4,346 nt of DNA. Origin: a virus (lineage: Duplodnaviria; Heunggongvirae; Uroviricota; Caudoviricetes). The notes under the pieces were generated by a model that made no database searches, was not told the DNA's origin, and saw only the letters and a list, made by a program, of their open reading frames with translations. Every line of letters begins with the position of its first letter. Within the stretch, counting starts at the first letter, position 1. The position numbers and the translations under genes are program-made. Shown in pieces: positions 396 to 4,346 of the stretch. The stretch is from IMG/VR virus record IMGVR_UViG_2711768005_000011; one strand, given 5' to 3'.

Positions 396-923
396 ATGAT
401 GCACCTGAAAAATATTAAGGCCGGGAATCCGAAAACACCGGAACAATACCAGCTAACTAAAAAAGCGGGCGTGGTATGGCTCTTTTGCGAAGATGGCAAA
501 AACTGGTATGAGGAACAAAAGAATTTTCAGCCAGACACCATAAAAATTGCTTACGATGAGAACAACATCATCGTTGCTGTCAGTAAAGACGTTTCAACTA
601 TTAATCCTGAAGGGCTAAGCATAGTTGAAGTTCCTGATATTACGGCAAATCGTCACGCAGACAATAACGGAAAATGGATGTTTCTGGATGGTAAAGTAGT
701 AAAGAGGGAATATACAGAACAGGAACTGCAACAACAGGCCGAATCACAAAAGGCCGCATTGCTTTCCGAAGCTGAATCAGTCATCCAGCCGCTGGAACGA
801 GCTGTCAGGCTGAATATGGCAACAGACGAGGAACGCACACGACTGGAAGCATGGGAACGCTACAGTGTTCTGGTCAGCCGTGTGGATACGGCAAATCCTG
901 AATGGCCACAAAAGCCTGAATAA
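396..923 (+). CDS. Tail-fibre assembly protein (Mu U / e14 Tfa-type chaperone), intact, 175 aa
   Basis: ATG at 396 with GGGGAG at 382..387. Protein [22 protein letters not shown] ... [25 protein letters not shown]. Translationally coupled to the preceding fibre cassette. About two-thirds of the protein is closely similar to the convergent paralogue at 952..1485. Confidence 0.85.
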
Positions 924-928
924 AAATT

Positions 929-948
929 AAGGCCCGATAGCGGGCCTT
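929..948. terminator. Bidirectional hairpin terminator between the convergent tfa genes
   Basis: AAGGCCCG (929..936) pairs perfectly with CGGGCCTT (941..948) around a 4-nt loop ATAG. It is flanked by TAAAAATT on one side, which gives a U-run for the minus-strand transcript. It lies exactly between the stop codons at 921..923 and 952..954. Confidence 0.5.
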
Positions 949-951
949 CTC

Positions 952-1485
952 TCATTCTGGTTGTTCGGGAAACGTTACTGGCAGGCTGGAGGTGTCTGTG
1001 GATTCAACCTTCTGCGCATAGAGCATCCACTCGGTTAATTTTTGTTTATTCTCATCGGAAATGATGCCCAGCTGTAGCTGAGAGTCCCACAGCTGGGTTT
1101 TATCCCTGACGAGCTGCAGCAGGCTCTGCTTTTCATTTTCCGCTTGTTGCCTTTGCTCTTCCTCGGTATAAGTTCGCTTTATCACCGCACCATCTTTGAA
1201 CATCCAGTTGCCCGAAATATCAGCCCGGCGATTTGCTGTAATATCAGGCAACTCAACGACACTTAAACCTTCTGGATTAATTGCTGATACATCCTTGTCT
1301 ATAGCAATAATTATTCCCTCAACTGTGTAAGCCAGTTTTATTGTATCCTCCTGAAAGTTTTTTAATTCCTCATGCCAATTTTTTCCATCTTCGGACCATA
1401 ACCAGATAACATCAAAATTCTTTGTTAGCTGGTATTGTTCAACGGTTTTTGGATTACCTGCGACAATGTTTTTTAAATGCTGCAT
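952..1485 (-). CDS. Tail-fibre assembly protein (Tfa/U' paralogue), intact, 177 aa
   Basis: Track [25 protein letters not shown] ... [30 protein letters not shown] at 1485..1483 lies 2 nt after the TAA (1490..1488) that ends the minus-strand fibre cassette. The N-terminal two-thirds is closely similar to the + strand Tfa. Confidence 0.85.
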
Positions 1486-1487
1486 GA

Positions 1488-1786
1488 TTATACCTGCGAT
1501 ACGTTATACCATGTTCCGTTAATTAACTTTTGTATTGGTCTGAATACTGCCGGATCATCACCATCGACTTCACCGATAATACCAAGCCCCGTGATTACAT
1601 GGCCTGATTTTTCATACATCACGCCTTTCTTCATGGTCTAAACAACTCGTGTGCCAAGTCTGACATCTCTCACATAGCGGGAATCAAAGTTACCGTAATC
1701 CGAGGGATTAACACGTCCCGTAATATTTATGGTTTTATTACTTTGAATGCTTCCGGAGACAAAGCGCATAACATGGACGTTATTAG
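1488..1786 (-). pseudogene. Side tail-fibre alternative cassette, C-terminal portion (downstream of the IS5 insertion), with an in-frame amber codon
   Basis: Same frame as the fibre segment on the other side of IS5 once IS5 and one TTAG copy are removed. Reads NNVHVMRFVSGSIQSNKTINITGRVNPSDYGNFDSRYVRDVRLGTRVV, then TAG (1640..1638), then [49 protein letters not shown], then TAA at 1490..1488. The conserved C-terminal motif lies beyond the amber codon. Confidence 0.7.
1783..1786. repeat. IS5 target-site duplication, left copy (TTAG)
   Basis: TTAG immediately left of the IS5 inverted repeat; identical TTAG at 2983..2986. IS5 is known to make 4-bp duplications at YTAR-type targets. Confidence 0.85.
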
Positions 1787-2982
<1,196 letters not shown>

Positions 2983-2986
2983 TTAG
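2983..2986. repeat. IS5 target-site duplication, right copy (TTAG)
   Basis: TTAG immediately right of the IS5 right inverted repeat; matches 1783..1786. Confidence 0.85.
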
Positions 2987-3614
2987 CATAAACATCCAGA
3001 TTACCATCGCCTTTTTGTTTAAAGCCCGTGTCATTATCACCCAATACAATCGAATTACCGCCAAGAGCACTGGATGTTCCGATACCCAGTGCACCATTCA
3101 GTTGACCACCAGATAACGGCAGTGCACCAACATCTCCTGCTGAAGGTTTTCTGGTGGTGTAAAATTCGGACCAGTCGGCTTCAAAACCATAACCATCACG
3201 GGCTGAACGATAAAAAATACCGCCATTTTTATAATTAATCCGAAACTGAGCTGCAGGACAACTTCCTTCTCCCATATAAAAATGAATAATTAACGTTGAT
3301 GCACCACTAATAGTTGCGTTATAGGCTCCGCTACTCCAGTTCCATCCAACTGCTTTATCATTCGCAACGGTGCTTCCTGTTTTCCCTAAGGCAAACGCAC
3401 CAACATGACTTGCTTTTAATGTGATATCGGAGGAACCATCAAAAGCCACATTGCTTATTTTCCTGGCAGTTTTTAATTTTGCAGCTGTAGAAGCATTGCC
3501 GGATAGTTCACCAGAAAGGCCACCGCTGAATGTTTGTCGATTAGTCCAGGTATTCGCTGTACTGAGTAACGGTATTTTCTCCCCGCTTGTGCCGAGTTCT
3601 CGTAAACCGAGGTT
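2983..3614 (-). pseudogene. Side tail-fibre alternative cassette, N-terminal portion of the variable region (from the crossover site to the IS5 junction)
   Basis: Minus-strand frame opens inside the crossover site (in-frame TAA at 3617..3615) and reads NLGLRELGTSGEKIPLLSTANTWTNRQTFSGG ... FDGSSDITLKAS ... GDGNLDVYA up to the IS5 junction. Track ORF 2874..3449 is the lower part of this frame; its last ~37 codons are IS5 sequence. It resembles lambdoid side tail-fibre (Stf) C-terminal regions as I recall them. Confidence 0.75.
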
Positions 3615-3622
3615 TTAGATAA
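3597..3622. other. Gin/Pin/Cin/Hin-family recombination crossover site (gix/pix-like), right boundary of the invertible segment
   Basis: TTCTCGTAAACC GA GGTTTTAGATAA is a 26-bp imperfect palindrome with the AAACC-NN-GGTTT core characteristic of serine-invertase crossover sites. It lies ~55 bp upstream of the invertase start, and the minus-strand fibre cassette frame begins in its inner half. Confidence 0.8.
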
Positions 3623-3676
3623 TGGCGGTTTCTGGCCTGCATGGCATGATTTGTGCTTTTGGACGGGAGATTCAGC

Positions 3677-3916
3677 GTGCTGATTGGCTATGTAAGGGTA
3701 TCAACAAATGACCAGAATACAGACCTGCAACGAAACGCTCTTGTTTGTGCAGGATATGAACAAATATTTGAAGATAAATTAAGCGGAACAAGGACAGGCC
3801 GACCTGGATTAAAACGTGCTTTAAAGCGCCTTCAAAAAGGTGACGCACTGGTTGTCTGAAAACTGGACTGACTGGGGCACTGTATGCGGCATCTTGTCGT
3901 GCTGGTGGTGGAAGCC
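3677..3916 (+). pseudogene. pin: Serine DNA invertase (Pin/Gin/Cin/Hin family), N-terminal ~60 codons intact then disrupted by stops
   Basis: GTG at 3677 with GGGAGA at 3663..3668. Reads VLIGYVRVSTNDQNTDLQRNALVCAGYEQIFEDKLSGTRTGRPGLKRALKRLQKGDALVV, a recognisable invertase N-terminus with the catalytic-Ser region. Then TGA at 3857..3859 where W is expected, KLD, TGA at 3869..3871 where R is expected, and LGHCMRHLVVLV. A full-length invertase would be ~190 aa. The ATG at 3653 used by the ORF track has no SD and is probably not the start. Confidence 0.8.
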
Positions 3917-4003
3917 TAGAAAAAGTATCGGGTGTTGCTGAACCGTGTTGATACATCAACTGCACCTGATATTGAGTGGCCTACGAACCCTGTCAGGGAG
4001 TAA
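3917..4003 (+). pseudogene. Remnant of the 3' end of a tail-fibre assembly (tfa) gene, in frame with the invertase fragment
   Basis: Same frame as the pin fragment reads EA, TAG (3917..3919), then KKYRVLLNRVDTSTAPDIEWPTNPVRE and TAA (4001..4003). This parallels the C-terminus of the intact Tfa in this window ([25 protein letters not shown]), with the conserved Trp codon replaced by TAG. Confidence 0.5.
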
Positions 4004-4017
4004 TCATTGGGATTATG

Positions 4018-4050
4018 CCGCAGCACGTCTTAAGCAAGAACGTGCTGCGG
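4018..4050. terminator. GC-rich stem-loop, possible terminator between convergent transcription units
   Basis: CCGCAGCACGT (4018..4028) pairs perfectly with ACGTGCTGCGG (4040..4050) around an 11-nt loop. It lies between the tfa-like remnant stop (4003) and the stop of the convergent minus-strand ORF (4058..4060). A T-run at 4061..4066 follows on the + strand, but 10 nt from the stem. Confidence 0.4.
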
Positions 4051-4060
4051 TTGGATGCTA

Positions 4061-4346
4061 TTTTTTCCCTGAAGCGGAAAACATTACTACAGTACCTTGA
4101 ACCTTGGTTTTAACATTCTCGAAATGCTCTGAGAGTATATGTGTTAAGCCTTCTTCGGAATCTTTTGTGTTTGAAAAGATGCCTTTCTGATTGTAAATGC
4201 GCATCAGTTTTTGACCGAAGCTATTGTGCACAACTCCATCGCCAAGAATTGTGGCTCCGTATAGAGTTCCATCGTCAGTTAAGGCCTGCGCCGCATTGCG
4301 TATTACACAGCTTTTTGTAGATATATTTCCAGGCAGGCAGTGAAGA
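4061..4346 (-). CDS. Hypothetical protein, C-terminal ~95 codons (5' end beyond the right edge of the window)
   Basis: Uninterrupted minus-strand frame from the window edge to TAG at 4060..4058: LHCLPGNISTKSCVIRNAAQALTDDGTLYGATILGDGVVHNSFGQKLMRIYNQKGIFSNTKDSEEGLTHILSEHFENVKTKVQGTVVMFSASGKK. The other two minus frames are closed. No family recognised. Not in the ORF track because no start codon lies in the window. Confidence 0.55.

Follow-up and report, generated by a model that had tools for sequence, protein, structure and literature searches.

Why should two genes for tail fibre assembly proteins (Tfa) converge on each other, with products that are alike in their N-terminal two-thirds and different in their C-terminal third? 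This arrangement is found in a stretch of viral DNA of 4,346 nucleotides (nt) (Duplodnaviria, Heunggongvirae, Uroviricota, Caudoviricetes; IMG/VR record IMGVR_UViG_2711768005_000011), the whole of which is called the window in the following. We regard it as highly probable that the pair represents the U and U' chaperone genes that are central to an invertible segment of the Mu G, P1 C, e14 P and Shigella B type, that this segment is inactive here, and that Tfa is a two-module protein in which the fibre tip follows the N-terminal domain. The finding is real but ordinary; the type of switch is already known. Its setting is a Shigella-type chromosome, in which the segment occupies the end of a lambdoid prophage remnant.

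The facing tfa genes

The core of the locus consists of the following features (coordinates in the window).

396-923, + strand: tfa gene of the U type, 175 amino acids (aa); matches PF02413; N-module at about aa 1-105, U-class helical C-module at about aa 106-175
929-948, no strand assigned: conserved intergenic hairpin, terminator-like, between the stop codons of both tfa genes; T-tract on the - strand only
952-1485, - strand: tfa gene of the U' type, 177 aa; matches PF02413; mosaic N-module followed by a U'-class C-module

Both genes match the Pfam family PF02413 (Caudo_TAP, the family of Mu U, P2 G and lambda Tfa; curated cut-off 22.1 bits), 396-923 with an E value of 8e-37 (126.8 bits) and 952-1485 with an E value of 5e-34 (117.8 bits). 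Their products, designated U and U' below, can be aligned end to end in BLASTP with 98/177 identities (55%, E 9e-70), and every Tfa motif listed in the original prediction for this locus is present in the alignment. The exact protein encoded on the + strand occurs in thousands of assemblies, the sources being labelled as Shigella sonnei or Shigella, and more than 1,000 contigs carry the exact Tfa proteins, annotated as tail fibre assembly proteins of Shigella. The idea that the similarity is due to chance or to an artefact of calling open reading frames (ORFs) is rejected in view of the BLASTP E value, the membership of both ORFs in Caudo_TAP and these annotations.

The similarity of the two genes breaks off within the coding sequence. 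In a codon-aware alignment, residues 1-125 of U and U' are identical to 68% at the protein and to 64% at the DNA level, whereas residues 126 to the end share 26% (protein) and 37% (DNA) and are thus near random. Counted in 45-nt windows, identity drops sharply from 0.58 to 0.33 at about nt 345-360 of tfa. The pairwise nucleotide and protein alignments therefore bear out what had been predicted, i.e., convergent tfa paralogues with similar N-terminal two-thirds and a diverged C-terminal third, the similarity being neither uniform nor absent at the DNA level. The inverted homology is centred on the hairpin at 929-948, as had also been foreseen, and comprises 375 nt at 64% identity (66% over nt 1-345), with the longest exact run at this locus being just 17 nt. 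The differences between U and U' at the three codon positions number 36, 26 and 72, which argues for protein-level selection rather than for a maintained DNA repeat. As DNA, the "inverted repeat" is weak, and the likeness of the two genes appears to be kept through selection on the proteins.

In the 28-bp spacer where the tfa genes converge, the hairpin reads AAGGCCCG-ATAG-CGGGCCTT, with a stem of 8 bp. For the + strand, the folding energy amounts to -16.4 kcal/mol (z -3.2), and for the - strand to -21.4 kcal/mol (z -5.2); an Rfam scan of the window returned no family at threshold. The 76 bp at 900-975, which contain the 3' ends of both genes and the hairpin, have a mean column identity of 96% in comparison with Mu, P1 and three related loci (L001-L003). 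The loop (937-940) is ATAG in the window, in Mu and in L001, CTAT (the exact reverse complement) in P1 (L014) and L002, and ATAT in L003. As the stems are identical, a loop reversed in this way is suggestive of template switching or of an inversion at the quasi-palindrome.

Relation to known invertible segments

The Tfa protein of the + strand matches the U protein of Mu (PDB 5YVQ_B) with an E value of 1e-93. At the DNA level, with 106-1786 of the window as query, positions 341-1541 (query positions 236-1436) proved to share ~80% identity with the segments annotated as invertible in P1, P7 and Mu, in which U, U', Sv, Sv' and cin/gin stand in the same order as in the window. The same stretch is also ~80% identical to sequences of D6, SfMu, several P2-like phages and Yersinia Mu-like phages. 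In Mu and P1, the order is Sc, crossover site, Sv-U, then in the opposite direction U'-Sv', crossover site, and gin or cin; the window keeps this order. Two sets, each composed of a C-terminal fibre segment and a tfa gene, are opposed to each other (106-923 on the + strand, 952-3612 on the - strand), and in both sets tfa starts directly after the fibre stop in the same orientation (Sv stop at 394 and U start at 396; Sv' stop at 1488 and U' start at 1485). The paralogues form an imperfect inverted repeat because two sets of tip and Tfa face each other across a shared hairpin. The original prediction had described this arrangement correctly, yet it left unnamed the U/U' core of a G/C/P-type segment, which accounts for it.

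The G segment of Mu (S-U / S'-U', gin) has the same gene order and orientation as the window. Its U and U' C-modules are 95% (nt) and 94% identical to those of the window, respectively, the stem-loop of the hairpin is identical, and gin lies directly outside the right site, as pin' does in the window. However, the host element of the window is a lambdoid prophage remnant and not a Mu-like phage, the N-modules and fibre tips represent different alleles (73-79% nt identity), the left site has been lost together with the constant fibre part and the greater part of the invertase gene, and Sv' carries both the insertion sequence (IS) IS5 and a nonsense codon. The C segment of P1 and P7 (cin, cix) contains the same U/U' pair (70% aa identity in the N-part and 24% in the C-part), and its U C-module is 99% identical (nt) to that of the window; in contrast to the window, Sv and Sv' of P1 are longer and Cin is intact, with an enhancer. 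A multi-segment, shufflon-like version is represented by the Min region of p15B. The P segment of e14 in E. coli K-12 (stfP-tfaP / tfaE-stfE, pinE) is a switch of a cryptic prophage with the layout of the window, including convergent tfa genes and an adjacent pin gene. Nevertheless, TfaP (137 aa) and TfaE (200 aa) are members of other Tfa lineages, the crossover sequences of e14 are different, and e14 is still invertible, whereas the window copy has a single site and no invertase. Both orientations of the e14 segment occur in natural strains, and it can be inverted in trans by PinQ, PinR and PinE, Pin enzymes from other prophages included (PMC12529663). For the Shigella pinB/B segment, a note in the P1 record gives 93% identity to the U/U' region of P1 at locus D00660.

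In an intact element of this kind, a Din-family serine invertase (Gin/Cin/Pin) recombines two 26-bp sites, one located inside the fibre gene and the other beside the invertase gene. Inversion then puts one of the two sets of fibre tip and Tfa behind the constant 5' part of the fibre gene and the promoter. The N-domain of Tfa (~aa 1-105) would travel with the fibre tip and, according to the published structure, bind it, and the two-helix C-domain falls into two discrete classes, U and U', which are old, hardly vary and are tied to the slot rather than to the tip. On these assumptions, the likeness of the N-terminal two-thirds would reflect related tips and protein-level selection, and the C-terminal difference would be an ancient class difference common to Mu, P1 and all relatives. 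Homology, architecture, site-specific inversion between sister genomes, co-variation of the modules and decay are shown by the data.

Conservation of the two Tfa modules

The break within tfa is not a peculiarity of the window. In the window, Mu, P1 and L001-L003, U and U' of the same locus have an aa identity of 68-70% in their N-parts and of 24-28% in their C-parts, and between the two C-classes nt identity is no higher than random (37-39%) at each locus compared. Across loci, C-modules of the same class are 89-100% identical (nt), and N-modules are mosaic and range from 64 to 96%. Correspondingly, U of the window is 73-74% identical (nt) to U of Mu and P1 up to about nt 315 and 96-100% identical thereafter (95-100% for the C-part), and U' of the window is 91-98% identical (nt) to Mu U' from about nt 226, the same range applying to its C-part against U' of Mu and P1. 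The U' gene of the window also has a patch, at nt 46-105, with 96% identity to Mu U against 60-67% to Mu U'. It belongs to the same lineage as that of Yersinia phage vB_YpM_5. A scan of species-representative genomes with an alignment of U and U' revealed one locus, in Salmonella diarizonae.

An AlphaFold2 (AF2) model of the U-type Tfa, made with database homologues, places a domain boundary at about aa 105, with a C-domain of two confident helices (108-138 and 144-161) and an N-domain of mixed alpha/beta structure; the predicted local distance difference test (pLDDT) score of the N-domain is ~60-70, and the model was used for the boundary only. This boundary coincides with the switch in conservation and lies just past the natural crossovers at codons 96-100, which are considered below. 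For Mu, the paper on Tfa and its fibre reportedly assigns fibre binding to the N-domain and trimerisation to the C-domain. The two-domain Tfa model (Mu, PDB 5YVQ) proposes a variable, fibre-binding N-domain and a helical C-domain, matching the co-variation described here. In that model the C-domain is conserved family-wide, whereas here the C-domains of U and U' form two classes (26% aa identity), each of them nearly invariant.

Fibre tips and Tfa modules

Which part of Tfa follows the fibre tip? The last 90 residues of the adjacent fibre were compared with each Tfa module in 16 fibre/Tfa pairs. Tip identity was correlated with the identity of the N-module (Mantel r 0.74, p 2e-4) and weakly with that of the C-module (Mantel r 0.23). 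Natural chimeras were found as well. Among 115 full-length database homologues with a C-module of the U class, 14 have an N-module of the Mu-U' type (91-94% identity). One of these chimeras, P0106, which is listed in 293 blocks of the assembly collection, is encoded in phage-plasmid-like contigs of ~112 kb and adjoins a fibre with the last 90 residues 99% identical to those of Mu S'. A reciprocal chimera from phage Tongde consists of a Mu-U N-module and a U'-class C-module and adjoins a tip of the P1-S type. Furthermore, the Sv' tip of the window and the "a" tip of vB_YpM_5 are 93% identical, the former belonging to a U'-class and the latter to a U-class Tfa. The Sv tip of the window is 53% identical to the tip beside a window-U-like Tfa of phage Tongde. 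The region 106-923, i.e., the Sv tip together with the whole + strand tfa gene, has counterparts in 24 E. coli records that cover 80% or more of it with no less than 95% identity; for most of the remaining ~950 records with a match, the alignment begins only at position 371 of the window (the last 24 nt of the tip and tfa), at ~81%.

The ~112-kb contigs (L019, 640-5528) carry a single, non-invertible fibre gene with a tip of the Mu S' type, followed by the chimeric Tfa (U' N-module to nt ~288, then U-class). The conserved hairpin is present after this chimeric gene, and homology to G-type segments ends shortly beyond the point that corresponds to the stop codon of U'.

It had been proposed for the window that the C-terminal part is tuned to the cognate fibre tip, that is, that the diverged C-terminal third of each Tfa recognises its own tip. 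This would fit with the fact that the C-thirds differ most within the locus (26% aa identity) and that each Tfa stands beside a different tip. However, near-identical tips are served by different C-classes, both in the 93% identical pair of the window Sv' and vB_YpM_5 "a" tips and in the case of the 99% identical Mu S'-type tip found with a U-class C-module. Moreover, the C-modules are nearly invariant across loci with widely different tips, and it is the N-module that co-varies with the tip (r 0.74 versus 0.23). Published work on Mu Tfa and its fibre, as cited in PMC9608196, places fibre binding in the N-domain and lets the C-domain mediate trimerisation. Recognition of the tip by the C-terminal third is contradicted by these data and is very improbable.

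The reading preferred here, in which the tip goes with the N-domain, has its own difficulties. The 16 pairs are non-independent and were chosen by similarity, and the Mantel p value overstates their independence. The match between tip and N-module is imperfect, since the 93% identical tips of the window (Sv') and vB_YpM_5 ("a") are accompanied by N-modules of only 78% identity. Neither the role of the C-module nor its sharp split into two classes follows from the data. As to the function of each Tfa module, we infer it from the literature and from the co-variation.

Recombination between the tfa genes

The original prediction also considered that the inverted homology could drive recombination independent of an invertase. 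Traces of exchange do exist in the family. In phage vB_YpM_5 (L016; U and U' at 3489-4016 and 4045-4578), the two genes share exact tracts of 62 and 27 nt within gene nt 46-135, and elsewhere in the N-part they are 57-87% identical; the tracts look like recent gene conversion between inverted paralogues. The natural chimeric Tfa genes are clean single crossovers at about nt 288-300, near the domain boundary. Judging from these patterns, exchange within the N-terminal homology evidently happened in the history of the family, either within one segment or between co-infecting phages.

Could the U/U' homology of the window be a live substrate for RecA-dependent inversion without invertase, which would flip the core and make chimeric tfa genes? 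The homology is real (375 nt at 64%), exchange within it has left marks in relatives and in the window itself (the two vB_YpM_5 tracts and the Mu-U-type patch in U'), and single-crossover chimeras with junctions at about nt 288-300 are known. The latter could, however, equally stem from recombination between different phages, and among seven correctly aligned within-locus pairs the pair of the window has the lowest identity (66%, nt 1-345). Shen and Huang (1986) reportedly arrived at ~23-27 bp for the strict-identity block that recombination requires. In a review (PMC8918686), this bacterial minimal efficient processing segment (MEPS) is said not to exceed 30 identical bp, and the longest exact run of 17 nt falls short of such a block. 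Mismatch repair would abort a heteroduplex at 34-36% divergence, and the arrangement is the same in all eight sister loci (L005-L012). Finally, when reciprocal synthetic chimeras joined at nt 330 were compared with 5,426 complete E. coli genomes (Shigella excluded, so that the comparison is indirect for the source lineage), no full-length match above 85% identity was obtained. We give hardly any credence to a live substrate at this locus, and recombination between the two copies in the window is very unlikely. The proposal of invertase-independent recombination thus has to be given up for the window (64-66% identity, no recombinants among the genomes compared), but it holds as a description of family history, as seen in the vB_YpM_5 tracts and the chimeras.

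A further possibility concerns the centre of the segment. The C-modules and the hairpin may be a deliberately conserved core with a function of its own, either as near-identical flanks through which unrelated phages could exchange cassettes of tip and N-module by homologous recombination, or as a non-homologous spacer that prevents the similar N-module arms from forming an unstable long palindrome. Within a class, this core is 89-100% identical (nt) across Mu, P1, P2-like and lambdoid prophages while its flanks vary; the crossovers map to its edge, and the two C-classes stay at 37-39% nt identity in every locus. On the other hand, protein constraint on the trimerisation helices combined with recent horizontal spread could suffice, and the arms made up by the N-modules have diverged too far for a cruciform. 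We consider a dedicated core unlikely. A more comprehensive scenario, which we put forward tentatively and consider rather doubtful, would make the tfa paralogues drivers of invertase-independent diversification: gene conversion would homogenise parts of the facing N-modules (the 62-nt tract in vB_YpM_5, the patch still present in U' of the window), crossovers at the domain boundary would move cassettes of tip and N-domain from one of the U and U' slots to the other and among unrelated phages, and the C-modules with the hairpin would serve as anchors or as a palindrome-breaking spacer.

Crossover site and inversion in related genomes

One crossover site of the putative segment is left.

3597-3622, no strand assigned: crossover site of the gix/pix type, TTCTCGTAAACCGAGGTTTTAGATAA; 23/26 bases identical to Mu gixR; the last site left

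A second gix-like site was found neither in the window nor in 6 kb of upstream sequence from the sister locus L005. The intact relatives L006, L012 and L001-L003 do have the left site, which in L006 lies 600 bp upstream of the point that matches position 106 of the window. L006 and L012 have identical Tfa and intact fibre genes, and the segment is oriented oppositely in the two; alignment of the window to L012 yields two pieces that overlap in 3602-3626. The half-sites in L006 are TCTCGTAAACCGAGG/TTTTAGATAATGGC and TCCTGTAAACCGAGG/TATTCGATAACGGC, and their right halves are swapped in L012, exactly at the core. Likewise, the E. coli loci L001 and L002 have opposite orientations with half-sites exchanged at the core. 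As judged by these junctions, inversion of the segment at this site is evident for the lineage, though not for the window copy. In L006, L012, L001 and L002, only a pin fragment of 60-64 aa is present, and therefore the invertase acted either in trans or earlier; for the window copy, too, a trans-acting invertase may exist elsewhere in the genome.

Decay of the locus

The remaining features of the window are mostly remnants of the switch and of its surroundings.

1-105, no strand assigned: end of IS600; 99% match to IS600 in thousands of E. coli records
106-394, + strand: 3' end of a fibre gene with an Sv-type tip, stop codon at 392-394; the translation ends in the conserved fibre end
1488-1786, - strand: 3' part of the alternative fibre Sv', with TAG at 1638-1640; continuous with 2987-3612 once IS5 is removed
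1787-2982, + strand: IS5 inserted in Sv', transposase ORF at 1855-2835; terminal inverted repeats, DDE_Tnp_1/DUF772
2987-3612, - strand: 5' part of the Sv' variable segment, from the crossover site; gp37_C domain match, frame-1 translation
3677-3916, + strand: pin' pseudogene, first 80 codons of a Din-family serine invertase; PF00239 (Resolvase), alignment with K-12 PinE
3917-4003, + strand: 3' remnant of a third tfa gene of the lambdoid type; homologues in L001 and L002 annotated by the Prokaryotic Genome Annotation Pipeline (PGAP) as partial tail fibre assembly protein
4058-4346, - strand: 3' part of a gene for a class I S-adenosylmethionine (SAM)-dependent methyltransferase; annotated so in L001 and L002, Methyltransf_12/25 matches in L005

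The fibre gene starts abruptly at 106, at the edge of IS600, its 5' part and the left crossover site being gone. In sister genomes, the other side of the IS600 that abuts the fibre gene is occupied by the prophage lysis region (holin, DUF1327; L005 4490-5710), which argues for an IS600-associated deletion that extends from the lysis genes through most of the fibre gene and takes in the left gix-like site. IS5 is bordered by a target duplication (TTAG at 1783-1786 and 2983-2986). It is absent from all eight sister loci (L005-L012), which are 99.5-100% identical to the window over the aligned stretches and whose alignments overlap by the 4-bp duplication; the insertion looks recent and strain-specific. 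The nonsense codon in Sv' is a change of Q to TAG (RVV(stop)TMKK in the window, RVVQTMKK in L001). The same TAG is shared by L012, where the inverted segment joins the broken tip to the full-length fibre gene (ORFs of 875 and 48 aa).

The pin' pseudogene has two nonsense codons (TGA at 3857 and 3869, equivalent to W61 and R65 of K-12 PinE). It is cut after codon 80 and fused by deletion to the last 27 codons of another tfa gene, and up to nt 3867 it is 94.7% identical (nt) to the intact invertase gene of L003. As the stop codons lie upstream of the deletion, inactivation may predate the latter. With one site only, the locus is to be regarded as the remnant of a Din-type segment; by its sequence, the switch appears inactive in the window and does not represent a functional member of these segments. 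The two short tfa ORFs (0.5 kb) are the sole intact genes of the switch in the window. Their intactness in a dead prophage was considered as a sign of selection, and this idea was set aside, the genes being short and the lineage clonal.

The third tfa remnant

The remnant at 3917-4003 had been described as resembling the + strand copy in its C-terminal part. It is indeed nearer to U (12/21 identities) than to U' (7/21), but nearer still to a third Tfa lineage, with 15/22 identities to K-12 TfaP and 25/26 to a second remnant that lies 1.35 kb downstream in sister genomes. The remnant displays the generic C-terminal motif of Tfa that was kept by U and lost by U', and is no evidence of a special link to the + strand copy.

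The 3' remnant (window 3906-4052; L005 9360-9507) is one of two direct copies with 89% nt identity, ~1.35 kb apart. The two copies flank the gene for the class I SAM-dependent methyltransferase (window 4058 onward, - strand).

Significance

In itself, the locus matters little, being a textbook host-range switch that has decayed within a Shigella-type genome rich in IS elements. Its main use is correct annotation, i.e., a U/U' core, one orphan gix-type site, a pin pseudogene, and the lesions caused by IS600 and IS5. In the Tfa family, C-domains of the U and the U' class appear to be exchangeable for each other, which agrees with the published two-domain model and extends it by natural chimeras. 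Of modest value for the engineering of phage or tailocin host range is that the unit to be transplanted would be the fibre tip together with the N-domain of its Tfa.

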